From contig CAZLUD010000001.1 of the NCBI GenBank assembly GCA_964562615.1, positions 129,072 through 193,071 of the forward strand: a stretch of DNA of 64,000 nt, given 5' to 3'. Below are positions 2,009 to 64,000 of this stretch, piece after piece. The translations under genes were made by a program, and so were the position numbers. Within the stretch, counting starts at the first letter, position 1. Each line of letters starts with the position of its first letter. The DNA is from an uncultured Candidatus Saccharibacteria bacterium (GTDB taxonomy: Bacteria; Patescibacteriota; Minisyncoccia; Phycocordibacterales; UBA12088). A model generated the notes under the pieces. It made no database searches, was not told the origin of the DNA, and saw only the letters and a program-made list of their open reading frames with translations.

Positions 2009-3193
2009 GTGAATTGCGTTATGGGTACACAAAAGTCCTCACCTGCAGACTTTTTGGCTAAAGCATCAGCAACCGCTCGTCACTATGGATTTGATACGCT
2101 TTCTCGCACCATCGCATCCAATACAACCCTAGAAAAAAAGAGCAAATCATCAGTTGATAAGCTCAAGCAGACCGACAAAAACATAGACGCAATGAGAGGA
2201 GAGTTGGTATCAGGCCTTGAGGCGCTACTAACCAATCGAAGCAAGGTGGATGAGCCTATTTTGTTCTATACATCAAATGCAGACAGTACCAAGCAAAAAA
2301 AGCATTCAACCTTTGGTATCCATGTCGTAGGCGCAAAAGAAAGTTTTGCTGAAGCACTTCTCCTTCGTGTGGGACTATCCATCCTTGAAGATACCGGACA
2401 CAAAAACTACTCCGTACGTATTGGCAGTATTGGCAACAGAGATTCTTCTGCAAAGTACATTCGCGAGGCAGGAAATTTCTTTCGCAGAAACATGCACGCG
2501 CTTTCGCCGCAATTACAAACAATGTTGAAAGAGGATATTTTTCTTGCGGCAGAACACATCATGAGAAAGAAGCATCCACTTCACCTTGAAATGCCAAAGC
2601 CAGTAGAATACCTTTCAACACACAGCAGACGACACTTTCAAGAGGTACTTGAATATCTTGAAAAGGCAGATCTCCCCTACGAAATGAGTGATGCACTTCT
2701 TGGGCACCGCGATTGCTACAGCGAAACCATTTTTGATATACGCCCCACAGACGAACAGGTGCAAAGCCCGCTCATTGCGCGCGGTGGACGATACGATGAA
2801 TTCGCTCGTCGCTATCTAAAAAGCACCGTACCTGCGGTAGGACTCACCTTTATCATAGACGAACCGCTACAAGCACTCCCTGAGCAAAAAAATCATACAC
2901 AAAAAAGCCCCAAGGCATTCTTTATTCACCTTGGAACAGAAGCCCGTCTCAAAAGCATATCGGTAGTAGAGCGGCTACGCAAAGCGCGAGTTCCCTTTGT
3001 CCACTCACTCTCTGGTGGAAGCTTTTCAGACCAACTTGCACGTGCCGAGCGCGAATCTATCCCATTTGCCGTCATTATGGGGCAACGAGAGGCAATTAGC
3101 GATGCGGTGATTGTACGCAACATCATTAGCAGGGCGCAAGACACCATCCCCGTAGAGGCAATCCCCTACTATTTCAAGGAAAAACTAGCATAA
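2009..3193 (+). CDS. hisS: histidyl-tRNA synthetase-like protein (divergent class II aaRS core plus HGPT-type anticodon-binding domain)
   Basis: ARGGRYDEFARRY ... VPAVGLTFIID resembles HisRS motif 3. The C-terminal 100 aa resembles the HisRS anticodon-binding domain. N-terminal motifs 1 and 2 are poorly conserved, with no RPEGT or FRHE. Confidence 0.5.
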   Translation: MNCVMGTQKSSPADFLAKASATARHYGFDTLSRTIASNTTLEKKSKSSVDKLKQTDKNIDAMRGELVSGLEALLTNRSKVDEPILFYTSNADSTKQKKHSTFGIHVVGAKESFAEALLLRVGLSILEDTGHKNYSVRIGSIGNRDSSAKYIREAGNFFRRNMHALSPQLQTMLKEDIFLAAEHIMRKKHPLHLEMPKPVEYLSTHSRRHFQEVLEYLEKADLPYEMSDALLGHRDCYSETIFDIRPTDEQVQSPLIARGGRYDEFARRYLKSTVPAVGLTFIIDEPLQALPEQKNHTQKSPKAFFIHLGTEARLKSISVVERLRKARVPFVHSLSGGSFSDQLARAERESIPFAVIMGQREAISDAVIVRNIISRAQDTIPVEAIPYYFKEKLA

Positions 3194-3253
3194 CCAAATC
3201 CAGCAGGGTACCCATTGCATACATGGTACCTCTGTGATAACTTTGATAGCACT

Positions 3254-3499
3254 ATGGCAATAAACGTAGAAACCACAAAGACAGCAACCGAAAATACCAG
3301 CTCGCTCATGCGACGCTTCACTAAGCGTGTCCAAGGATCAGGTATCCTCCAAAGAGCACGATCACTACGTTTTTTTGAACGAAGTCATTCTACCTTTGTA
3401 AAGAAGCGAAGAGCTCTAAAGACTATTGAGCGCCGAACAGAATTCCAAAAAATGCTTAAAATGGGTCTCAGCAAAGAAGCAGCAAGTAAGCGTCAGTAA
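3254..3499 (+). CDS. rpsU: 30S ribosomal protein S21
   Basis: LMRRFTKRVQGSGILQRARSLRFFERSHSTFVKKRRA matches the S21 pattern (LRRFKR ... FYEKP ... RK). Start taken at the internal Met. Confidence 0.7.
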   Translation: MAINVETTKTATENTSSLMRRFTKRVQGSGILQRARSLRFFERSHSTFVKKRRALKTIERRTEFQKMLKMGLSKEAASKRQ

Positions 3500-3528
3500 T
3501 CCTCTCGAGCACCCTTCTCGCAATCTCA

Positions 3529-3909
3529 ATGGATGTCTCAATAAAAAACCTAACGAGATCTCCTCTTCCTCGTATCGCCTTTAATGAAATCAAGAAAGCC
3601 ATTCTAGGCTCGTCATACGAGCTTTCACTAGTATTTGTCGGTACAACCCGGTCACGTGCCCTTAACAAGCACTACAGAACCAAGGACAAGCCAACCAACG
3701 TACTTGCCTTCCCACTTGATGTTGCTATTGGGGAAGTATTTATTTGCCCCCATGTAGCAGACAAACAAGCACCAGATTTTTCATTGTCAAAAAAGGGCAT
3801 GGTCGCCTATCTCTTTATACACGCCTGCCTCCATCTAAAGGGCTTAGACCATGGTGCGCGCATGGAAGCACTTGAAGCGACCTACATGAAGAAGTTTTCA
3901 ATAACCTAA
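3529..3909 (+). CDS. ybeY: rRNA maturation endoribonuclease YbeY
   Basis: HACLHLKGLDHG is the YbeY HxxxHxxGxxH metal-binding motif. 126 aa. Confidence 0.85.
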   Translation: MDVSIKNLTRSPLPRIAFNEIKKAILGSSYELSLVFVGTTRSRALNKHYRTKDKPTNVLAFPLDVAIGEVFICPHVADKQAPDFSLSKKGMVAYLFIHACLHLKGLDHGARMEALEATYMKKFSIT

Positions 3910-4016
3910 CCAAAGTAGGTTATACACTTTTGCACAGGCACTGAGGACAACGCTATCCGAGTTATAGTGTAGAATACGTGTACCATGCGTCACCATGGGT
4001 TTATGTTGTACATGCA

Positions 4017-5391: not shown

Positions 5392-6606
5392 ATGAAGCAA
5401 ATCCAACCAGAAGTAGAAGCATTCGCACGTATACGCGTTGTCGGCGTAGGCGGTTCAGGTAAAAACGCGACCAACCACATGATCGACTCCAAAGTTAAAG
5501 GAGTTGAATTTATTGCGGTTAATACAGACGCGCAAGACCTTCATCACTCTCTCGCTAAAAAGAAGATACACGTAGGAAAAAATCTTACCCGAGGACTAGG
5601 CGCAGGAGGTCATCCAGATATTGGCAGAAAAGCTGCTGAAGAAACCAAGGAAGAAATCCTCGATGCACTCAAAGGCTCTGACATGGTCTTTATTACCTGC
5701 GGTATGGGAGGCGGCACAGGCACGGGCGCAAGCGCGGTAGTCGCAAGCGCAGCAAAAGAAATTGGCGCCCTCACCGTGGGGGTGGTTACCAAACCATTTT
5801 CTTTTGAAGGCCAACAGCGCATGCGCATGGCAGAGCAAGGTATCGAAAACCTCAAGAAAGAAGTGGATGCGCTCATTGTGATTCCTAACGACCGACTCCT
5901 TGCCATTGTCGACAGAGACACCAGCGTCAAGAACGCGTTTGCCCTTTGTGACGACATCCTCCTACGAGCAGTTGAAGGTATCTCAGACCTTATTACCATG
6001 CCGGGTATCGTCAACGTAGACTTTGCCGACATTAAGTCAGTTATGGAAAACGCCGGAAGCGCACTCATGGGTGTGGGTATTGCCTCAGGAGAAAAGCGCG
6101 CAGAAGAAGCAGCACATCAAGCTATCAACTCTCCCCTTCTTGAAGTATCTATTTCTGGTGCTAAAGGAGTACTCTTTGCTATTGCAGGAGGTGATGACCT
6201 AGGTATGCTTGAAGTACAAGACGCGGCAAGAGTTATCACCGAATCTATCGACCCAAATGCTCGCGTTATCTTTGGTGCTATTAAAGACGAGAAGCTAAAG
6301 AAGAATGAAATAAAGGTAACCGTTATCGCCACCGGCTTCCCTGAGGGCATGCTCTCAAAGAGCTCTTCTCTCTTTGGTATTTCTGCACCACGCAGAGTAC
6401 AGCACGAGGAGGAGCGCGAAGAGAGAAGCGTTATACACAACTCTCTTGGTGATGTTGCCTCAATGGTAAAGCCTCGCATAGAAAACAAGGAGGAGATTAC
6501 AAATGTCATCCCAGAAGAAAAAAAGGAGAATACCAATTCCACTGATGATGACGATGATGATTGGGGTGCGGTTCCAGCATTTCTTCGAAGAAGCAAGATA
6601 AAGTAG
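5392..6606 (+). CDS. ftsZ: cell division GTPase FtsZ
   Basis: GVGGSGKNA and [10 protein letters not shown] tubulin signature motifs. Acidic/Asp-rich C-terminal tail. Confidence 0.95.
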
Positions 6607-6627
6607 TATCACGCACAACAAAGAACA

Positions 6628-6663
6628 ACACCAGCTACGTATGGTAGCTGGTGTTTTCTTTTT
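6628..6663 (+). terminator. rho-independent terminator after ftsZ
   Basis: Hairpin acaccagctac/gtagctggtgt followed by tttctttttt. Confidence 0.6.
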
Positions 6664-6665
6664 GC

Positions 6666-7157
6666 TCATAGGAGTTTAAATATAAGAACTATACCAGAAA
6701 GATACGCCAATATTATTTCTGGATGCGGCATACAATGACCCGCCTCCATTCGCATTGCCCGACCTCGGATATCTTGTTCGAGGACAGGTAGCTTTGCCTT
6801 ATTGCAAAGCCTAGCAAGTGAGAACAATGCCTCAGGTGTTATCGAAAGCGGGATAACCATTAACGACAATATATAAGGAACAAAACTAAGAGGTATTTCA
6901 ACAAATAAAAGAGCAGTACTAGCAGTCGCCACCGAAAAATAGCAATTACCAAAAAATGTTGCCGCCGCAAATTCTTTTGCTGTATACAAATACATGCAAA
7001 TGACAGCAGTTGTCAAAAAACTTATTTGTAAAATGAGCGAGGCAATTTCTAGCTCTTGTTTAGAAATTGAAATTGCAATACCACAAAGGAGTCCAATAAA
7101 AACCCTCAGGTAGTCCATTGTTACCCCCACCAGGTTAGACTCCGCGCAAAGTACCAC
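6666..7157 (-). CDS. hypothetical small membrane protein
   Basis: Multiple hydrophobic segments; no recognisable motif. Confidence 0.3.
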   Translation of the reverse strand: MVLCAESNLVGVTMDYLRVFIGLLCGIAISISKQELEIASLILQISFLTTAVICMYLYTAKEFAAATFFGNCYFSVATASTALLFVEIPLSFVPYILSLMVIPLSITPEALFSLARLCNKAKLPVLEQDIRGRAMRMEAGHCMPHPEIILAYLSGIVLIFKLL

Positions 7158-55262: not shown

Positions 55263-57806
55263 TTACTTTGTATCTTGATGCGTCATATAAATCGATCGGT
55301 ACGGATTAGTTTCTACTGCCGTTGCATGAAGTAGCTCAATCTGCGATCTGATCGTAGCCATTATTTCATCATCAGTCTCAGTAGTAAACCTAAGTGGGGC
55401 GCCAATAACTACCGACACTACCCCTTGGCGTGGGATGATTTCATTCTTTTTTAATATGTACGAAAGCCCATAATGAGCAATCGGAACGACTGGCACCTTC
55501 AGTGCGCGAATAAGATGCGCGGTTCCTCGCATAAACGGAAGCATAGCAGCATCATCACCTCGTCTACCCTCAGGAAACATAAGTAGTGATTCTCCACCAT
55601 CTACCACACGACCAGCGTATTGCAGCGATTTTGAAAACCCATCTTGTTGACGCAACAGAAACGCCCCTGCTCCAAATCGCACAAGCAAAAGAATACCTCG
55701 ATACCACATACGCATATACACTGACGCCTGCGGTCGGTGGTAATAGGTATCTGCAGTAGGAGTCGCAAGAAGATATCGATATCTATATGGTAGCGCTCGT
55801 ATGATAACCGAATGATCAGCACTGCTTACATGATTGGTAACAATCATGATAGGTTCCCTTGTAGTAGGAATATGCGCTCTCCCTACAACCTTTAGTGTTA
55901 TAAAGCACGCACTTATCGCGCTTTCAAGTAATGATAAAAGCACGCGAAGCGCTCTACCCATTGGAGTATGGATACCACGAAACCCTACCGCTCTGTGTGT
56001 AGTCTTTTTTCTTTCTTGTATATACCTCTCTATATCAGCAACAGTGGTATGTGAGGTTATCATTTCTTCTGCTAACTCGTAGTTATATTCACGAGCAATT
56101 GCTGCAAGAAGTTCTACCCTTCCTAATGAATCAAGTCCCACCTCACTTATGAGTGTTTGCTGAGGGGCAATAGTAGAGGCGTCCTTACCAGTAACTGATG
56201 CGAGTAAATCGTACAATCTAGACTGTCGTGACGAGCTAGACGAGCCACCTGGGGTAGTGCTAGTAACAAACTTTTTTACCAATGTTCGTTTAGTTTTGAG
56301 AGTGGTCGTTTTAGGAAATTCACGCTCATGCCAAAGACTATATCCTTGTATACGCATCGCGCTTGACAGTACATCATTTGCTCGCTCAACCACATCCTTT
56401 GCATCAGTAGTACCGTCCGCAAGTATCACTACCGCATGTATTGCTTCACCATGTTCGCGCGGCACACCAACCACGCACGCCTCCTTTACTCGTGAATCTT
56501 CCAAGAGCACACGCTCTATATCATCAGGAAATATATTGATGCCTGATGAGGAAAGGATCATTTCTTTTACTCTGCCGCTTACAACAAGATTGCCGTCATC
56601 GTCCATATAGCCGATGTCGCCTGTTTTAAACCACCCATCGCTCGTAAAGGCATCACGGGTAGCCTGTTCATGGTGATAGTACCCGGCAAAGACATTAGGA
56701 CCTTGTACCTCTATTTCTCCTTCTTTTGAAAACCGAACCGACACGTGTGGAAATTCTTTACCAACCGTACCCCACGCTTTATTGGTCGGAGAGGTAGCCG
56801 CAATCACGGGAGATGTTTCAGTGAGTCCATATCCCTCGTATATGGATATACCAACATTTCTCCAGAATGTAGCAATAGAAGGTGACAGTGGCGCACCACC
56901 AGATACCATGTACTCAAAATGAGATCCAAATGCCTTATGGATTTTTCTAAACAACATCTTTTTAACAAATAACGGTGACGTACTCGCTCGCTCGCTAAGG
57001 CGCATAAGCGTGTCGTATGTACCCGCCTCTTTTGCTCTTGCTAGCACTCCTGCATACATCGCCTCGATAAGGCGTGGTACCACCAGCATGTGTGTTATCT
57101 TTTCTTTTTTAAGAAGCACAAACAATGCTGACGCAATAATTGCGCTTGGATATACAATTGTACCCCCCAGCAAAAGCGGCACCCACAACCCCCCTACCTG
57201 CTCAAACATATGTGACAGTGGAAGCGTAGAGAGAACACGAACCCTCTTTCCAAATGAAAAATGAGTTGCCGCACCGCAAACATTTGCAGTTACATTTTTG
57301 TGGGTAAGCATAACCCCTTTTGGGTCACCAGTGGTGCCAGAAGTGTACACAATGTACGCAAGATCACTTTCCTTACATACCGAAGCAGGAATACCGATAC
57401 ATGACTCGATACAATATAAAAAATCTTCGAGCACATAGGTGGGTACCCCTATGTTCAGTAATCGATACTTACTTTTAAGCACCAATCGCGCGTGCGCCCT
57501 GGTGACAATAACCTCTGCAGAAGTACTGGTTGCTTGTACATCTATAGGGACAACTACCGCACCGATCGATAGAGCACCAAGACTTGCAACTACCCACTCG
57601 ATACCATTTAATCCCCACACCACAATCGTGTCTCCTTTATGTACACCTTGCGCGACATACCATGCGCTCGCTTTTTGTATCAGCGTATGCAATGTGGCAT
57701 ACGTATATCGAAAGGTTCGATACCCGTTATGCACCACAATCGCTTCATCCATACGCGATGCGTGTAGCGAAAGTATGTCTACAAGCGTCTTTGGATTTTG
57801 ATACAT
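55263..57806 (-). CDS. tri-domain fusion: acyl-CoA/acyl-ACP synthetase (AMP-binding) - acyl carrier protein - 1-acylglycerol-3-phosphate acyltransferase (PlsC)
   Basis: YTSGTTGDPKGV (AMP-binding). GLDSLGRVELLAAIARE (ACP Ser-attachment DSL). NHVSSAD (HX4D acyltransferase) and FPEGRRG. Confidence 0.8.
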   Translation of the reverse strand: MYQNPKTLVDILSLHASRMDEAIVVHNGYRTFRYTYATLHTLIQKASAWYVAQGVHKGDTIVVWGLNGIEWVVASLGALSIGAVVVPIDVQATSTSAEVIVTRAHARLVLKSKYRLLNIGVPTYVLEDFLYCIESCIGIPASVCKESDLAYIVYTSGTTGDPKGVMLTHKNVTANVCGAATHFSFGKRVRVLSTLPLSHMFEQVGGLWVPLLLGGTIVYPSAIIASALFVLLKKEKITHMLVVPRLIEAMYAGVLARAKEAGTYDTLMRLSERASTSPLFVKKMLFRKIHKAFGSHFEYMVSGGAPLSPSIATFWRNVGISIYEGYGLTETSPVIAATSPTNKAWGTVGKEFPHVSVRFSKEGEIEVQGPNVFAGYYHHEQATRDAFTSDGWFKTGDIGYMDDDGNLVVSGRVKEMILSSSGINIFPDDIERVLLEDSRVKEACVVGVPREHGEAIHAVVILADGTTDAKDVVERANDVLSSAMRIQGYSLWHEREFPKTTTLKTKRTLVKKFVTSTTPGGSSSSSRQSRLYDLLASVTGKDASTIAPQQTLISEVGLDSLGRVELLAAIAREYNYELAEEMITSHTTVADIERYIQERKKTTHRAVGFRGIHTPMGRALRVLLSLLESAISACFITLKVVGRAHIPTTREPIMIVTNHVSSADHSVIIRALPYRYRYLLATPTADTYYHRPQASVYMRMWYRGILLLVRFGAGAFLLRQQDGFSKSLQYAGRVVDGGESLLMFPEGRRGDDAAMLPFMRGTAHLIRALKVPVVPIAHYGLSYILKKNEIIPRQGVVSVVIGAPLRFTTETDDEIMATIRSQIELLHATAVETNPYRSIYMTHQDTK

Positions 57807-57820
57807 ATACGAGTAGTGTG

Positions 57821-58132
57821 TTAAGTAAGTAATACTACCGCTGTGGCATATTCACCATCATGACTTATTGATACACTCGTAATCGTATCATCGCCCACTC
57901 GCAAAAAGGGCGCACCACTTTCTTCGTGGCAAACCTCAAGCAGTAACCAGTCAATCTTCTTACCTATCGCCTTACAATACGCCTCCTTAACGGCAAGGTA
58001 TCCACCGGCGCGCTTTGTATCATTATGTAATGACCGCATTTCAGCATCAGTAAATAGACGCGCGCACTCTTCAGTGCTTGAAAGTAAGCGTTCTACCCGA
58101 CGTATGCTGACTAAATCTATTCCTACCCGCAT
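57821..58132 (-). CDS. acpS: holo-ACP synthase (4'-phosphopantetheinyl transferase)
   Basis: MRVGIDLVSIRRVERL and AVKEAYCKAIG ... W.DIE pattern; 103 aa; immediately upstream of the ACP-containing fusion. Confidence 0.7.
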   Translation of the reverse strand: MRVGIDLVSIRRVERLLSSTEECARLFTDAEMRSLHNDTKRAGGYLAVKEAYCKAIGKKIDWLLLEVCHEESGAPFLRVGDDTITSVSISHDGEYATAVVLLT

Positions 58133-58173
58133 TGGTAGTAGTATACCAGAGCTGTGCTATGCTTTTTGACATG

Positions 58174-58620
58174 GCGATTATTCATAACAAAAAGGCATCA
58201 TTTAACTTCGAACTCTTGGAGAGATTCGAGGCTGGTATAGAGCTTTTTGGCCACGAAGTAAAGGCAATAAAAGCCGGAAAAGCACATCTTGAGGGCGCGC
58301 GGGTACTAGTACGAGGGGGTGAAGTATATCTTGTTGGCGCTACTATATTTGCCTACCAAGAAAGCAATAGCCCTAAAACGTATAATCCCATGCGCAACAG
58401 AAGACTGCTTCTCCATAAAAAAGAAATGCTCCAGATAGCAAGTGCGGAGGCCACCAAAGGGTTGACAATAGTGCCAATTTCGATGTATAATAAAGGTAGA
58501 AAATTGAAGCTTGAGATTGCTATTGCTCGCGGAAAAAAGTTGACAGATAAGCGAGAGACAATAAAGAAACGCGATACCAATAGAGATGTTGAACGCGAGA
58601 CTAAGTTCAAACTTAAATAG
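58174..58620 (+). CDS. smpB: SsrA-binding protein SmpB
   Basis: NKKASFNFELLERFEAGIELFGHEVKAIKAGKAHLEGARVLVRGGEVYLVGA aligns with the SmpB core. Basic C-terminal tail. Confidence 0.9.
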   Translation, partial: AIIHNKKASFNFELLERFEAGIELFGHEVKAIKAGKAHLEGARVLVRGGEVYLVGATIFAYQESNSPKTYNPMRNRRLLLHKKEMLQIASAEATKGLTIVPISMYNKGRKLKLEIAIARGKKLTDKRETIKKRDTNRDVERETKFKLK

Positions 58621-58710: not shown

Positions 58711-59091
58711 GGGGATGATTGGCCTCGACAGTGAGTATGTGTTGCATAGTGTGCGAGTTCGTGTGAGGTGACACGGTAAAAACATCTCAACCAATACGTG
58801 CTACAAAACTTCGCACGGCAATTCTTTCACCTTTCCAGATGAAGGATTTTGCACTCGCTGTAGCCTAAGGCTCGCGACATCCTACAGAGTATTGTCTGAT
58901 AGCTTTGTAACGGTGTAATACCATCAGAACCGCAGAAAGGGTGCATCGCCTTATCTGTTAAATAATGATGCTATATGGTATCGGCTTTTGACGAATTTTC
59001 TATCGACACCACGAACCAACAAATTCGCCAAGACTTCGTAGACTCACTATGCACTCCTCTCTGGATGCGGGTTCGATTCCCGCCATCTCCA
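58711..59091 (+). ncRNA. ssrA: tmRNA (SsrA), standard one-piece
   Basis: 5' GGGGATGATTGGCCTCGACAG (tRNA-like half). Candidate tag ORF GCA-ATT ... GCACTCGCTGTAGCCTAA encodes AILSPFQMKDFALAVA-stop. 3' GGATGCGGGTTCGATTCCCGCCATCTCCA, whose acceptor pairs with the 5' GGGGATG. Confidence 0.8.
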
Positions 59092-59093
59092 CA

Positions 59094-59493
59094 AAACATA
59101 CATCAAGCGCCTTCGGGCGCTTTTTGTTTTGTGGAGATCGAGCGAGCAAACTGCTTTGCTCGCGTCGGGAATCGAAAGACGCAGGCATATCGCGAAGCGA
59201 TGCCGAGTCGTGGTCAAGAGTGCTTAGTATTTTTAGAGCAACGCGAATAAAAATAGTTAGCAACTCGTGACCGATCCGCCATCTCCACAGATTAAAACAA
59301 TACCGCCGCTTAGGCGGTTTTTGTTTTGACTGTGGAATGGAAGACGATGCCTTCGCATCGTCTGTCGGGAATCGAACGGCGGAGCGTTATACGCACGACA
59401 GAAAGGAGTACGTATCGCGAGCCGCGTCCAACAACACTTAACGAATGCAATGAGTTTAGTGATTGTGGGACGATTCCCGCCATCTCCACAAAT
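59094..59493. repeat. two tandem ~200-bp units carrying direct partial copies of the tmRNA 3' end plus inverted T-loop fragments
   Basis: ccgatccgccatctccaca at 59271 and cgattcccgccatctccacaaa at 59471. Inverted gtcgggaatcgaa at 59165 and 59364. Each unit begins with a hairpin plus T-run (59105-59125, 59304-59323). Confidence 0.8.
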
Positions 59494-59573: not shown

Positions 59574-60101
59574 ATGAAATCACCGACCATCGAATCTGGT
59601 TCCTATGTTATAAGACCGTTTAAGACGAGTGATGCCGAATTGTGGCAAACGTGGGATATTGATCATGAAGTGCAAGCATTTATGCCGGAGCCGTTTAATG
59701 AACCACAAGAAATTAAGGAGCAGTACGCATACATAAAAGCATGTGATGCTGATGAAGAAGGATACTACTGGTCAATTGAAACGAAGGACGGAGTCACAAT
59801 TGGTACCATCGCACTCACAGAATACAATGACTACCATGGCGTTGCTAATCTCGGTATTGTTATCGGAGATAAAAACTATTGGGGCAAAGGGGTTGCAACG
59901 GAGACCATCACTACTCTTGTCGACTATGCATTTACGAATCTAAATCTTTTCTATATTAGCGCTGAAGTTGAGGAAGGAAATATTCCGATGATGAATGTCC
60001 TAGAAAAAGTCGGGTTCAAACAAGATGGTTTATTTGAATCAGCTCGGGTAAAAAATGAAAAACGAATCAATGTTCACCATTTCAGTATTGTTAAGTGGTA
60101 A
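59574..60101 (+). CDS. GNAT acetyltransferase, RimL/RimJ-like
   Basis: SYVIRPFKTSD ... GVANLGIVIGDKNYWGKGVATE ... NIPMMNVLEKVGF matches the RimL-type GNAT. Confidence 0.8.
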   Translation: MKSPTIESGSYVIRPFKTSDAELWQTWDIDHEVQAFMPEPFNEPQEIKEQYAYIKACDADEEGYYWSIETKDGVTIGTIALTEYNDYHGVANLGIVIGDKNYWGKGVATETITTLVDYAFTNLNLFYISAEVEEGNIPMMNVLEKVGFKQDGLFESARVKNEKRINVHHFSIVKW

Positions 60102-60604
60102 TGAATATTTATATGAAAAGCATAAAAATAACCCCCATTAAACAACGAGACGCTAGTGCCTGCGGACCTACCAGTATTGAAATGACTCTGAAATACTTTG
60201 ACGTACCACATACAGTCGCGGATATTACTAGGATAACTAACTATAAAAAAGAAGGTGGCATATACAACAAACAACTGGTGGGCGTGCTACAACACTATGG
60301 CCTTAAGACAAAAGTTTTGAAGAATACCTCTTGGGAACAACTGATGGGACTAAATACCAAAGATTCTGTGATAATTCTTTCTTGGATGCTTGATGGCTAC
60401 ATTGGACACCTTAGTGTTTTGGATAATGTTGATAAAGACCATATCTATCTCGCAGAACCTACAACTGGAGAAATATTAAGGATAGGTAAGATAAAGTTTC
60501 TCAGACTCTGGTTAGACTACGAGGCTAAAGCTGAAGTACCGTTATTCCCCGAATCAAAGTCTGACATTCAACTGAGGTGGTTGTGTATTGCATCGAAACC
60601 ATAA
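60095..60604 (+). CDS. stand-alone peptidase C39-like cysteine protease
   Basis: IKQRDASACGPTSIEMTLKYFDV (Gln oxyanion plus Cys nucleophile as in C39), a later GHLSVL His and an Asp. 7-nt overlap with the GNAT gene. Confidence 0.6.
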   Translation: MVMNIYMKSIKITPIKQRDASACGPTSIEMTLKYFDVPHTVADITRITNYKKEGGIYNKQLVGVLQHYGLKTKVLKNTSWEQLMGLNTKDSVIILSWMLDGYIGHLSVLDNVDKDHIYLAEPTTGEILRIGKIKFLRLWLDYEAKAEVPLFPESKSDIQLRWLCIASKP

Positions 60605-60661: not shown

Positions 60662-61891
60662 TCACTTTTTCAGACTTACCCAATGCAGTACTTTCATGAG
60701 GATATGGAAGACCAGGCTGGTCGTCATATCATCACGATCGAGTGCTGGACTAAGTTCGACGACATCCATGCCAACAACCTGGTTGTGCTCAATAACCGCA
60801 CGTAACAACTTCAGCAGCGCCTGCGGGGTCATGCCGAGCGGTACAGGAGTACCAGTTCCAGGAGCGAAAGATGGGTCGAGTACATCAACGTCGAAACTGA
60901 TATAGCACTTCCTCCCTTTTGGCAGCCTAGTTGCAAGCACATTAGCCAGTCCTTCTTCGATGACGACCTGAGTTGTTGTCTGACACCTTTCTTCCCCAAG
61001 GGGAGCACCGGCAAAACCACGCACTCCAAACTGGAGCAAATGGGCAGTTGGGTTTTCATGCACAACCCGTCGCATGACGTTGCCATGATGATGCTCTGAA
61101 CCAACTTCCCACTCCCCCATGTCTGTGTGCGCATCCAGATGGATGATGACTATCTCTCCGTGGACTTCTGTACACGCACGAATGAGTGGCGCAGAGATTG
61201 AGTGGTCTCCCCCAATGAAGACAGGAAATGTACCACTCCGATGTGACAATAAAGCGCCCCGATAGCAACGCTCATAGACAGTCGCAAGAGATTCCCCCGT
61301 TCGATACGCAACATTGCCCAGATCTCCAAACGGAACTCCTTCAAGGATCACAGTCCCTAGGTCGGCGTTATACCAACCACGGTTTCTTCTGGTAAAGATA
61401 TCCCGCTCGTAAGCCAGAAACTTCGCCGAAACTTCACGGAGTCGATCCGGACCAAAGCGAGTACCGGGATTGCCGGTCGCCGCCTGGTCTAGACATACCC
61501 CCGCCACAACGATTGTTCCTTCTTCGAGACTACACACATCGACTGCAGGCGAGTACACGAACGGTGTTCGCGCACTAACAAATAAGGTTTCCCTATCGAC
61601 AACCAGCGGCTCTTCAGCTTTTCCGTCTACTACTTCAATTAGAAAGAAAGCTTCAGCAAACGCAGCAAGAATCAATAGAAATTCCTCGTACGGTTCACCC
61701 CCAGCCACTCCAAGCTCCATCGCTGCTTCATGCGTACTTTTAACTACACGGAAAGCTACGAGGATCTTCAAGGACTCCTCAGTCAGAGAAAGCCGATGAC
61801 CAGTCCGAGTGTTGTGTAGCACAACCCCATTCTCGCCATCTTCACTTTCAAGCATGAGGTGTCTTGATACAACATACGAATCAGTACTCAT
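60662..61891 (-). CDS. arginase/agmatinase-family (ureohydrolase) enzyme with N-terminal RRE/PqqD-like domain: candidate peptide arginase
   Basis: GGDHSIS, IIHLDAHTDM, SFDVDVLDPSFAPGTGTP and MDVVELSP ureohydrolase Mn-binding motifs. The N-terminal 90 aa, VVLHNTRTGHRLSLTEESLKILVAF, is PqqD-like. ATGA start/stop overlap with the upstream gene. Confidence 0.75.
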   Translation of the reverse strand: MSTDSYVVSRHLMLESEDGENGVVLHNTRTGHRLSLTEESLKILVAFRVVKSTHEAAMELGVAGGEPYEEFLLILAAFAEAFFLIEVVDGKAEEPLVVDRETLFVSARTPFVYSPAVDVCSLEEGTIVVAGVCLDQAATGNPGTRFGPDRLREVSAKFLAYERDIFTRRNRGWYNADLGTVILEGVPFGDLGNVAYRTGESLATVYERCYRGALLSHRSGTFPVFIGGDHSISAPLIRACTEVHGEIVIIHLDAHTDMGEWEVGSEHHHGNVMRRVVHENPTAHLLQFGVRGFAGAPLGEERCQTTTQVVIEEGLANVLATRLPKGRKCYISFDVDVLDPSFAPGTGTPVPLGMTPQALLKLLRAVIEHNQVVGMDVVELSPALDRDDMTTSLVFHILMKVLHWVSLKK

Positions 61892-62997
61892 GACTCTCCT
61901 CTCTTGTGCCCACAGTATGGGCACGTATGCCGTTTTCTGAATTTGCGGAAGTTGATGTCGTAGGTACGAAAATCCAACTCCGCAACCTTATTGGTCATCG
62001 TTGGTTTCGAGAAACCAGTAACGACCTTCACCGCATCCAATACATGATAGTTTGCGGTGATCGCGCAAATAGCAGCGATATTTCCACCCTTAATGTGCGT
62101 ATTAGTAACTGCCAATTGCTGATACTCAGCTCGATGAAGCTGTTTATTAAGCGCGTGCTCATAGCAGTACCAACACGCTGATTCTCCAGGAATGACCGTT
62201 GGTCCGATAAAGCTTAAGTGTCCATCATACCCACCGCAGAGAATATGAGGCACTTGTAGCTCAAAGCAAACTTCCGTGACAATCCGATTAACCACATCCG
62301 TACTCGGATCATCCGCACAGGAGATAATCAAACTGCTACCTCGCATCCCCACAAGGCAATCTTGTGGTGACACAACTTGCTGTGCAATACCCTGGACTGA
62401 GATTTCAGCATCAATGGAACAGAGTTTTCGTTCCGCCACTTGAACCTTTAGGGATCCGACGTCATCAACATTGAACAAACACTGTCTGTTCAAGTTTGAT
62501 ATTTCTACTACGTCTGGATCGATGAATGTAAAGTTACGGGCACCAGCCAGAGCAAGACCTTGGGCAACCCAAGTACCAATCCCTCCCAAACCGATTATCG
62601 CAACCCGCGCTCTATGTAAACGCTCTTGCATCACTTCGCGGGATTGGGTTCTTGTCTCAAACTCCGCAAAGAAATTACGCTGGGTTGCAAATTTATCTTG
62701 GTCAATAACGGCAGGATGCTTTTTGGTAGCCAGTACCCGACTCTTTTGGAGTACAGATACCAGTCGCCGCACCTCTATGATTGGGAGGCCTGCTTTCCTT
62801 GCTATCTCTTCGATTGAATGCAAACCATCAAAATATTGCAAGCAACCAAAAGCCTCTTTGTTAAGTTGAAACGGCAGGACAACACTACTTGCATTGAAGA
62901 GAAAGTTCACTTCATAGACATCTCGAACACCTCTGTACAAGACAGAGATACTGTCTTTGACCCGTGGAAACACTGCATGGACTCCTTCCGTAGACAT
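61888..62997 (-). CDS. ThiF/MoeB/MccB-like E1 adenylyltransferase with N-terminal RRE-like peptide-binding domain and C-terminal Cys4 zinc site
   Basis: ARVAIIGLGGIGTWVAQGLALAGARNFTFIDPDVVEISNLNRQ (E1 nucleotide-binding). CWYC ... CPYC. The N-terminal ~110 aa, FNASSVVLPFQLNKEAF ... SIEEIARKAGLPIIEVRRLV, is winged-helix/RRE-like. Confidence 0.8.
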   Translation of the reverse strand: MSTEGVHAVFPRVKDSISVLYRGVRDVYEVNFLFNASSVVLPFQLNKEAFGCLQYFDGLHSIEEIARKAGLPIIEVRRLVSVLQKSRVLATKKHPAVIDQDKFATQRNFFAEFETRTQSREVMQERLHRARVAIIGLGGIGTWVAQGLALAGARNFTFIDPDVVEISNLNRQCLFNVDDVGSLKVQVAERKLCSIDAEISVQGIAQQVVSPQDCLVGMRGSSLIISCADDPSTDVVNRIVTEVCFELQVPHILCGGYDGHLSFIGPTVIPGESACWYCYEHALNKQLHRAEYQQLAVTNTHIKGGNIAAICAITANYHVLDAVKVVTGFSKPTMTNKVAELDFRTYDINFRKFRKRHTCPYCGHKRGES

Positions 62998-63082
62998 CCC
63001 GAACCTTTCTGTACAAGACAGAATATGATTCTATGCGAAAAGTACTATACATTAGTGACATGTCAAGGCAAACATAAAAATA

Positions 63083-63111
63083 TTGACAAAGATAACAAGT
63101 GCAACTATTCT
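63083..63111 (+). promoter_or_regulatory. sigma70-like promoter for the small peptide gene
   Basis: TTGACA at 63083-63088, 17-nt spacer, TATTCT at 63106-63111. Confidence 0.4.
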
Positions 63112-63164
63112 TCAAATAAACAAGCAAGTGGGTTGCTTGTTTCAACCCTCATCAGGAGAATCCT

Positions 63165-63311
63165 GTGCAACAGAGTGTTCCATCGATAAAGACTGGACCA
63201 AAGAATAATTCGAAAGACATGGCAGTCGATCTCAAGAAAGTGGTAATCAAGCGACTGCAACGTCGACACAGTGATGTCTACATGCGTGGACTGCGTCGTC
63301 CCCGTGCGTAA
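63165..63311 (+). CDS. 48-aa Arg/Lys-rich small peptide, candidate RiPP precursor (GTG start)
   Basis: RBS aggaga 5 nt upstream of the GTG start. MQQSVPSIKTGPKNNSKDMAVDLKKVVIKRLQRRHSDVYMRGLRRPRA. Promoter upstream and a strong terminator 25 nt downstream. Divergent from the enzyme genes. Confidence 0.35.
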   Translation: MQQSVPSIKTGPKNNSKDMAVDLKKVVIKRLQRRHSDVYMRGLRRPRA

Positions 63312-63335
63312 TTGGCCAATAGTCTCTGGTCAAGG

Positions 63336-63366
63336 GCGGAAACCAGATGTGGTTTCCGCCTTTTTC
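63336..63366 (+). terminator. rho-independent terminator
   Basis: ggcggaaacc-agatgt-ggtttccgcc followed by tttttc. Confidence 0.8.
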
Positions 63367-63633
63367 ATTTGCTATATAAACGCAGAACAACTAATCATCT
63401 CGCTAATGTAGATCCATGGCGATTTTAAACGCGTTACCATGGACGACGTAAATGACGCGCTCAAATGGCTAAGACCTGATCGAAGATGGACACTCATAAC
63501 ACAGCCGTAGAGGCAACTCCCCACCTTACAGATTGGCAAACCAATCTGTAAGGTGTTTTTTTATGCCGATAATCATACTTTATCCAATGAAATATCCTCC
63601 ACAGATTGGTGTAATAAGAGTAGTATGCGGGGT

Positions 63634-64000
63634 ATGGAGTCCGAAAGCGATGAAATAGTAGCGGGCAAAGTGCAATCGGGCGATACCGACGCTTTTGGGG
63701 TATTGATGGATAGGTATGAGGCAAAAATAACCCGTTATGCGAGTAAGTTTTTGTACTCGTACGATGATAGACTCGATGCCGTACAAGAGGTATTTCTTCG
63801 GGCGTACACCCACATTCAAAGTTTCAAAACACACGAGAAATTCTCTCCATGGTTATATCGCATTGCGCATAATACATTTCTCAATATCATACGCACACAA
63901 GGAAGAGAAAAAATATCATTTGTTGATCTCGATATCCTCTTCCCTTCCGGTATCCCTGATGAGCAAGAAGAAAGAACCATGCTCTCTACTGAGTATCCGC
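63634..64000 (+). CDS. ECF-type RNA polymerase sigma factor (partial, runs off the window end)
   Basis: DAFGVLMDRYEAKITRYASKFL ... VQEVFLRAYTHIQSF ... FSPWLYRIAHNTFLNIIR matches sigma-70 region 2. Confidence 0.7.
   Translation, partial: MESESDEIVAGKVQSGDTDAFGVLMDRYEAKITRYASKFLYSYDDRLDAVQEVFLRAYTHIQSFKTHEKFSPWLYRIAHNTFLNIIRTQGREKISFVDLDILFPSGIPDEQEERTMLSTEYP

Follow-up and report, generated by a model that had tools for sequence, protein, structure and literature searches.

A conserved, mostly unannotated arginine-rich peptide gene linked to MccB-like and arginase-family enzymes in Patescibacteria: a probable precursor of a modified peptide

Introduction

To our knowledge, two members of the ThiF family are known to modify ribosomal peptides: MccB from the microcin C system and PaaA from the pantocin A system. 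The site of PaaA action is an internal Glu-Glu pair in its 30-amino-acid precursor PaaP. All known MccA peptides, the precursors of microcin C, have a terminal Asn, and formation of the N-P bond requires this residue (PMC6495379). A second set of enzymes of interest here are the arginases that act on peptides: the named peptide-arginase family (OspR, FlmR, OhkR and PbsE) corresponds to PF12640, and KgrD of the enteropeptin pathway is the only PF00491 arginase named in the same paper as acting on a ribosomally made, post-translationally modified peptide (RiPP), doing so in a radical-S-adenosylmethionine (SAM) sactipeptide pathway in which a thiomorpholine-modified Arg is needed (PMC12703449). 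Fusion to a RiPP recognition element (RRE) is mentioned for neither arginase family in that paper (PMC12703449). Herein we describe a 48-codon small open reading frame (sORF) that lies beside genes for an MccB-like ThiF-family enzyme and a PF00491 arginase-family enzyme in 64,000 nucleotides of DNA (the window) from an uncultured Candidatus Saccharibacteria bacterium (contig CAZLUD010000001.1 of assembly GCA_964562615.1, positions 129,072 to 193,071, forward strand). Comparison across loci makes it likely, in our judgement, that the sORF encodes the substrate precursor peptide of both enzymes in a RiPP-type cassette. A sequence-only reading of the window had proposed the sORF as a self-contained transcription unit for the substrate of a peptide arginase, and this interpretation was essentially right, with refinements as to which family the enzyme belongs to, where the conserved motif is located and the restriction of the transcription unit to one clade. 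All coordinates are positions in the window, and L-numbers denote the loci compared in the analysis.

The locus resembles each of the described systems in part. As in microcin C, a clamp-bearing ThiF-family enzyme is found beside a short precursor whose gene has a strong Shine-Dalgarno sequence, the place of the C-terminus is critical and a GNAT acetyltransferase gene is nearby, whereas the precursors end in Ala or Ser, are 29-54 amino acids long and have an Arg-rich tail, and the cassette has an obligatory RRE-ureohydrolase, lacks MccC, MccD and MccF and resides in a Patescibacteria host. The OspR-type peptide arginases share with the present enzyme the presumed reaction, in which peptidyl-Arg of an Arg-bearing core becomes ornithine, and membership of the di-Mn ureohydrolase superfamily, but the cassette enzyme belongs to PF00491 (5.6e-63; PF12640 E >= 0.096) and has an N-terminal RRE fused to it. 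From KgrD, as that enzyme is described, the cassette is set apart by the lack of a radical-SAM enzyme, the ThiF-like partner and the RRE fusion. Pantocin A also relies on an RRE-bearing ThiF-like enzyme, yet none of the 21 cassette peptides has a Glu-Glu in its conserved region. Lastly, the catalytic score lies above the cut-off for agmatinase SpeB (TIGR01230) and the metal-site motifs are intact, but unlike the stand-alone SpeB of ~300 amino acids the enzyme carries an extra RRE of ~125 amino acids, is coupled to an MccB-like gene and is strictly linked to a gene for an Arg-rich peptide. A literature search, with most subscription-journal papers outside its reach, found neither a ThiF/MccB plus arginase cassette nor this peptide family described anywhere, and no report of an RRE fused to an arginase.

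Results and discussion

The small gene is conserved and stays with the two enzyme genes

The sORF (63165-63311, plus strand) has a GTG start, 48 codons and a TAA stop (63309-63311), and encodes MQQSVPSIKTGPKNNSKDMAVDLKKVVIKRLQRRHSDVYMRGLRRPRA, a translation identical to the earlier one save that 8 Arg had been counted in a peptide that has 7. Enzyme homologues were followed to 31-38% identity, and every contig that carried a ThiF-like/arginase-like pair with enough flank also held a homologous small ORF, so that the conservation expected beside homologous enzyme pairs was found and the search for its absence came out the opposite way. The 21 distinct peptide homologues recovered are 29-54 amino acids long. 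A metagenome scan seeded with the peptide motif alone returned 11 loci, and genes for ThiF, arginase and/or C39 peptidase are present in all nine that have any flank of enzyme size. For the genes that accompany the sORF, the closest homologues are found in Kaiserbacteria, Paceibacterota and other Patescibacteria.

The pattern of substitution is that of a protein-coding gene. Over the last 28 codons, pairwise differences numbered 1016, 695 and 1879 at codon positions 1, 2 and 3, respectively, and Arg codons (CGT, CGC, CGG, CGA, AGA and AGG) were swapped freely with the residues unchanged. The third-position excess and the synonymous exchange of Arg codons imply purifying selection on a protein, and on this comparative evidence the 48-codon sORF is a real gene. 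Its position relative to the enzyme genes takes four forms across the loci. The window, L081, L083 and L090 have it divergent from the ThiF-like and arginase-like genes, which follow each other in that order; in L084, L086, L093-L097, L100, L101 and L104 it is co-directional with and upstream of the ThiF-like gene; in L098 and L099 it precedes the C39 gene; and in L102 and L103 it is placed between the arginase-like gene and a GNAT gene. Genes outside the cassette vary even between close relatives. Since the peptide gene stays with the enzymes through these rearrangements, it is most simply read as functionally tied to them.

The conserved part of the peptide is its C-terminal part, with the last 27 residues of the 21 distinct peptides aligning without a single insertion or deletion. 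Counted from the C-terminus, I-21, L-18, R-8, R-5 and R-4 are invariant (21/21), R-2 is present in 20/21 (Lys once), and K-24 and G-7 are each present in 19/21, the latter being Thr in the other two. Of the 21 peptides, 20 end in Ala and one in Ser, in every case directly followed by the stop codon. This C-terminal pattern can be written R-[GT]-[LV]-R-R-[PR]-[RK]-[AS]-stop, the window tail being R-G-L-R-R-P-R-A. A second conserved motif, [DNK]-x-x-K-[VL]-x-I-x-x-L, is located mid-peptide; its K-V-x-I-x-x-L part corresponds to window residues 24-31, and its last invariant residue, Leu-18 (window Leu31), is always 18th from the C-terminus. In the window we delimit a recognition-like motif at residues 21-31 (VDLKKVVIKRL; 63225-63257, plus strand), which includes K-24, V/L-23, I-21 and L-18 and would bind the RREs, and a putative core at residues 32-48 (QRRHSDVYMRGLRRPRA; 63258-63308, plus strand), in which R41, R44 and R45 are invariant and the C-terminal Ala is fixed. 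The idea that the polar N-terminal half acts as the leader did not hold: this part is variable and is absent from the homologues of 29-31 amino acids (L101-L104), and the conserved motif lies further along the peptide. For retrieval of further members of the family, K-V-x-I-x-x-L followed by nine residues and R-G-[LV]-R-R-x-R-A-stop can serve as a search signature.

The sORF had been predicted to escape standard annotation, and in contigs with gene calls it is indeed mostly uncalled, replaced or swallowed. It is uncalled in L083, L084, L100, L101 and L102; a spurious ORF takes its place in L081 (3516-3873, minus strand; same strand, other frame), as do opposite-strand ORFs in L103 (6264-6488, minus strand) and L104 (3788-3964, minus strand); and in L086 the ThiF call is extended to 449 amino acids (2652-4001, plus strand) and engulfs the peptide gene. 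A word-index protein search with the 48-amino-acid peptide against 5.8 billion clusters gave no match, which is explained by how rarely the peptide is called as a gene, while an exhaustive search of 1.84 billion representatives retrieved three called homologues (45-50 amino acids) and one over-call of 162 amino acids. Pfam, NCBIfam and PADLOC gave no match for the peptide.

Both enzymes carry predicted peptide-recognition folds

The ThiF-like gene (61888-62997, minus strand) encodes an MccB-like adenylyltransferase of 369 amino acids (Pfam ThiF 6e-44) with a predicted N-terminal RRE, or peptide clamp. Its closest solved relatives are MccB (phmmer 2e-27) and then PaaA (2.5e-19), ahead of ThiF, MoeB and E1 enzymes. 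The AlphaFold2 model of the protein (predicted local distance difference test, pLDDT, 90) was aligned by Foldseek with MccB over ~364/369 columns at a template modelling (TM) score of 0.73-0.82, and with PaaA at a TM score of ~0.7; in the model the N-terminus adopts a beta-beta-beta-alpha-alpha-alpha arrangement that aligns with the MccB peptide clamp. Invariant in the ThiF-like homologues are the nucleotide loop GxGGxG, a conserved Arg, Lys and Asp (D229), and four Cys in two CxxC pairs. PADLOC returned only partial, generic matches to the E1 Rossmann region for this protein and nothing for the other four cassette proteins, and a defence-system assignment (CBASS Cap2 and similar E1/E2 systems) was rejected.

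The gene for the arginase-like enzyme (60662-61891, minus strand) starts with an ATG at 61891 that overlaps the ThiF stop codon (ATGA) and has AGGAGAG just before it, which suggests translational coupling of the two genes. The protein, at 409 amino acids, has the length of its homologues, and the complete PF00491 domain (5.6e-63) spans residues 138-412 of the 420-amino-acid ORF. All 29 arginase homologues compared keep the metal-site motifs GGDH, DAHxD and DxDxxDP unchanged. The best solved relatives of the catalytic domain are agmatinases, and PF12640 matched 9 of the 29 homologues with a best E of 0.096. The claim that the peptide is the substrate of a peptide arginase was thus upheld in one half, in that sequence argues strongly for a substrate role, and corrected in the other, in that the enzyme is a PF00491 member nearest to agmatinases and not of the OspR type (PF12640).

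The N-terminal ~125 residues of the arginase-like enzyme, when modelled alone (pLDDT 84), fold as beta-beta-beta-(beta)-alpha-alpha-alpha, and their matches in the Protein Data Bank (PDB) are the MccB clamp, PqqD, TbiB1 (a lasso-peptide leader binder), TruD, LynD, the PbtF RRE, SuiB, ThcOx and NisB. This domain is homologous to the N-terminal domain of the ThiF-like enzyme (hhalign probability 91%, E 9e-7). On the strength of these models both enzymes carry RRE folds and are, hence, predicted to be peptide-directed.

Accessory enzymes of the cassette

Convergent with the enzyme genes is a gene for a stand-alone C39 cysteine peptidase (60095-60604, plus strand; Pfam 3.9e-11), a candidate leader peptidase whose Q, C(GP) and (G)H residues are invariant in 12 homologues and which is present in most cassettes. 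It is missing in the most divergent clade, where an M16 peptidase gene is found directly upstream of ThiF in L103 (2527-3894) and neither a C39 nor an M16 gene within 4 kb in L102; the M16 peptidase of L103 could be a non-orthologous swap for C39 with the same role in N-terminal removal. Next to the C39 gene lies that of a GNAT acetyltransferase (Acetyltransf_3; 59574-60101, plus strand), an accessory enzyme whose closest solved structures are SpeG, diamine N-acetyltransferase and PA3944, and GNAT genes are adjacent to the cassette in two distant clades. The degree of relatedness is discordant between these genes: the GNAT of L102/L103 (~6550-7114) is 62-65% identical to that of the window, while ThiF and arginase there are only 31-38% identical.

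Proposed function and its alternatives

The sORF is a real gene, it is strictly linked to the two enzyme genes, RRE folds are found on both enzymes and the catalytic motifs are intact; the generic features of a RiPP pathway, a linked precursor gene and RREs on the modifying enzymes, are thereby present at the level of sequence and fold. The whole is most likely a compact, portable cassette of Patescibacteria that consists of the peptide, the MccB-like enzyme and the arginase-family enzyme, a C39 or M16 peptidase and a GNAT being optional members. How the peptide is bound, which residues are modified, in which order and to what product we infer as follows. K-V-x-I-x-x-L would dock as a strand on the homologous N-terminal RREs of both enzymes, and the fixed spacing from this motif to the C-terminus would put the Arg-rich tail into their active sites. 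The Mn-dependent ureohydrolase would turn at least one of the invariant R41, R44 and R45 into ornithine, R47 being a less likely site because it is Lys in one homologue; we give this Arg-to-ornithine conversion roughly even chances. The MccB-like enzyme would adenylate the invariantly placed C-terminal carboxylate, and this would account for the constant position of the peptide's end. Since the terminal Asn needed by MccB is absent, the activated carboxylate needs another nucleophile, and as the constant partner enzyme makes a primary amine, a lactam between ornithine and the C-terminus is the most economical proposal: the ornithine amine would capture the activated carboxylate to form a side-chain-to-tail lactam. 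This C-terminal lactam is tentative and we rate it as rather unlikely; alternatively, the adenylate may be retained, or converted into some other C-terminal conjugate. The C39 (or M16) peptidase would remove the N-terminal part, and the SpeG-like GNAT would acetylate a free amine as tailoring or self-protection.

Taken to its end, this scheme would describe a ribosomal counterpart of the polymyxin-/bacitracin-type cationic lariats, in which an RRE-guided arginase and an E1-like adenylation lead to a side-chain-to-tail macrolactam and a SpeG-/PA3944-like GNAT serves as self-protection or tailoring acetylase. We consider such a product doubtful, but if true it would open a new class of RiPPs, give the MccB family a new reaction outcome and be a product of ultra-small Patescibacteria. 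Irrespective of the product, the locus adds a new family of precursor peptides, most of them missing from annotation and some replaced by gene calls on the wrong strand, and it pairs two enzyme types that have no known joint action, namely an MccB-like enzyme on an Asn-less substrate and a classical arginase/agmatinase fold fused to an RRE. Confirmation of the precursor role would mean a second, RRE-guided route to peptidyl-ornithine and probably new C-terminal chemistry, and also that genome-reduced Patescibacteria keep a dedicated modified-peptide pathway, in a cassette as small as four enzymes and a 48-amino-acid peptide.

Several points weigh against the precursor role or against steps of the proposed pathway. 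The 21 peptides lack the double-glycine-type site (a conserved GG, GA or GS) expected for C39, and no recognisable peptidase cleavage motif was found in them. Their sole conserved Gly (-7) follows an Arg, and cleavage by C39 after it was considered and rejected, with Thr replacing this Gly in 2/21 and the GG motif being absent. A conserved core combined with a variable N-terminus is also the reverse of what is seen in many RiPP families. The cassette has no exporter, and no transporter is conserved within it across loci. We know of no precedent for the lactam step among MccB-type enzymes. The arginase-like enzyme scores 182.2 against the agmatinase SpeB model TIGR01230, for which the NCBI cut-off is 174.3, and given this score it may act on a small-molecule guanidine substrate. 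Finally, close arginase homologues also occur without a ThiF-like gene and without the peptide (L087 and L088).

The described system that comes nearest suggests a microcin-C-type Trojan-horse peptidyl-nucleotide, with a nucleotide on the C-terminus, the GNAT as an MccE-like immunity factor and the arginase tailoring the carrier. MccB is the nearest solved relative of the ThiF-like enzyme by sequence and by fold, an Acetyltransf_3 GNAT is adjacent, and a minor clade of microcin C precursors has 17-56 amino acids (PMC6495379), all of which counts in favour of this view. The peptides nonetheless end in Ala (20/21) or Ser (1/21) and never in Asn, an MccC-type pump, MccD and MccF are missing and the GNAT is nearest to SpeG, not to MccE, and we regard the microcin-C-type product as improbable. 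Quite improbable, too, is a carrier or tag peptide whose C-terminus the E1-like enzyme activates for transfer to another molecule or protein, as happens with ubiquitin or Pup, or a scaffold on which a small molecule is built and from which it is clipped later, with the papain-fold C39 peptidase carrying out the transfer or release. Such a role would agree with the invariant and fixed C-terminus, the intact E1-type adenylation site, the nearly constant presence of a cysteine peptidase whose Cys and His are conserved and the missing exporter, but the peptide has neither a beta-grasp domain nor a Gly-Gly end, no E2-like protein or domain is found in the cassette (the PADLOC matches being generic only), the RRE-fused arginase would go unexplained and RRE folds are typical of RiPP enzymes.

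The two remaining explanations deny the substrate role altogether. The sORF could encode a real small protein that is not a substrate, such as a regulatory or immunity protein or a basic peptide that binds RNA, beside an arginase that is an ordinary agmatinase of polyamine synthesis; the agmatinase equivalog cut-off is passed, the GNAT resembles the polyamine acetyltransferase SpeG and the peptide is strongly basic. Against this stand the RRE domains on both enzymes, which housekeeping agmatinases and ThiF/MoeB lack, the place of the gene in the cassette, kept through four rearrangements while the flanks differ, and the fixed spacing between motif and C-terminus, which together leave a bystander of this kind very improbable. 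That the divergent promoter region here holds a chance ORF or an RNA element without coding function is hardly credible at all. The sORF is short, starts with GTG, has no family match and is accompanied by promoter-like sites that are not above shuffles; however, the conservation of its residues extends down to cassettes with enzymes only 31-38% identical, and substitutions at third positions dominate, a bias that together with the amino-acid conservation across the 21 peptides excluded both forms of this explanation. Rfam on the window gave the transfer-messenger RNA (tmRNA) and a sub-threshold microRNA match on the terminator only, after which the RNA-element explanation was rejected. A precursor peptide for the two RRE-bearing enzymes is, hence, the reading that we retain.

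Expression signals of the peptide gene

All the signals that the sequence-only reading had reported around the sORF (promoter, hairpin, AGGAGA at 5 nt from GTG, terminator) were found in place. A predicted sigma-70-type promoter, TTGACA-17-TATTCT (63083-63111, plus strand), has its -35 hexamer TTGACA at 63083-63088 and its -10 hexamer TATTCT at 63106-63111, separated by 17 nt, and is with a 10/12 match to the consensus the top-scoring promoter-like site of 60-64 kb. Four promoter-like sites were observed in the region against 5.9 expected from shuffles, and in view of this lack of excess the promoter on its own proves nothing. Close to the mRNA's predicted 5' end lies a 10-bp hairpin with a perfect stem (63118-63142, plus strand), which may have a role in mRNA stabilisation or regulation; the folding energy of the 59-nt leader is -15.9 kcal/mol, with a z-score of only -1.68. 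The Shine-Dalgarno sequence AGGAGA (63154-63159, plus strand) is positioned 5 nt ahead of the GTG at 63165, and its GGAG is invariant in the alignment of close relatives. Downstream, an intrinsic terminator (63332-63368, plus strand) is predicted from a stem at 63332-63363 with 14 pairs, 7 of them G-C, followed by a T run.

These promoter and leader signals are weak by themselves, and their credibility comes from comparison with relatives at the sequence level. Three close relatives share the -35 hexamer without change and have a -10 hexamer of the form TAnnCT and a mostly conserved terminator stem, while the 5' hairpin is kept in four sequences (the window and these three relatives) with two compensatory pairs. 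The position of the window GTG start is an ATG in the close relatives, which makes an internal ATG (Met19) less likely as the true start; Met19 is further disfavoured by the motif MQQxVPS, conserved in the close relatives with synonymous changes, and by the GGAG upstream of the start at the GTG position. A candidate divergent promoter of the enzyme operon, TTGCCT-16-TATAGT (63044-63071, minus strand), is a consensus match only (9/12). The proposal of a self-contained transcription unit applies to the clade of the window, of which it is a feature, and does not extend to other clades, where the peptide gene is in line with the enzyme genes.

Between the terminator of the peptide gene and a second, stronger one (63522-63555, 15 pairs) lies a stretch of ~190 bp (63372-63560) in which we found no convincing ORF (the best having 23 amino acids, MDDVNDALKWLRPDRRWTLITQP), no promoter-like match and no Rfam match, and which could correspond to a small RNA or to a remnant.

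Related loci and surroundings of the cassette

The homologues of the RRE-bearing arginase in L087 (4001-5236) and L088 (2234-3421) are, along the full length, 49% and 35% identical, respectively, to that of the window. The neighbours of the former are genes for WD40 proteins, an FGE-sulfatase-like protein, methyltransferases and a B12-binding radical-SAM enzyme, and the RRE-arginase may be a module that is reused by other peptide pathways. In Lysinibacillus sphaericus (NZ_SADV01000006.1; L021, 412-8044), an arginase-family protein of 395 amino acids is 27% identical over residues 14-414 and thus has an N-terminal extension; its gene is placed between two Orn/Arg-decarboxylase-like genes, followed by genes for an unknown 481-amino-acid protein, an ATP-binding cassette (ABC) transporter and a GNAT, and the cluster is apparently uncharacterised and different from the present cassette. 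A contig scan with the arginase alignment was set aside, as its 80 loci are ordinary agmatinases of many phyla and the patterns it used are generic metal-site motifs that are uninformative on the cassette.

In the complete Kaiserbacteria genome CP064968.1 (L083), several copies of a repeat are found within the ~500 bp that follow the peptide gene (2965-3560); their translation contains recurring words such as FAHIQKTARRQS and GIEPSR, and ARAGORN detected no tRNA in this stretch. Just downstream of the peptide gene of the window, a partial gene for an extracytoplasmic function (ECF)-type sigma-70 factor (region 2-like; 63620-64000) runs off the window end, unlike in L081, L084 and L086, where a TrmB-family regulator is near the cassette.

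On the other side of the cassette, an SmpB gene (58132-58620) is directly followed by the tmRNA gene (58711-59094; Rfam 84.5 bits), for which ARAGORN gave the tag peptide ATKLRTAILSPFQMKDFALAVA. The ~480 bp from the tmRNA gene to the GNAT at the end of the cassette hold no credible ORF. tmRNA genes are frequent integration sites. At 55263-58132, a fusion protein of 847 amino acids combines AMP-binding (acyl-adenylate-forming), carrier (PP-binding) and PlsC-type acyltransferase domains, and an ORF of 103 amino acids resembling holo-acyl-carrier-protein (ACP) synthase is located immediately upstream of its gene on the same strand; together the two look like a self-contained module for acyl activation and transfer.

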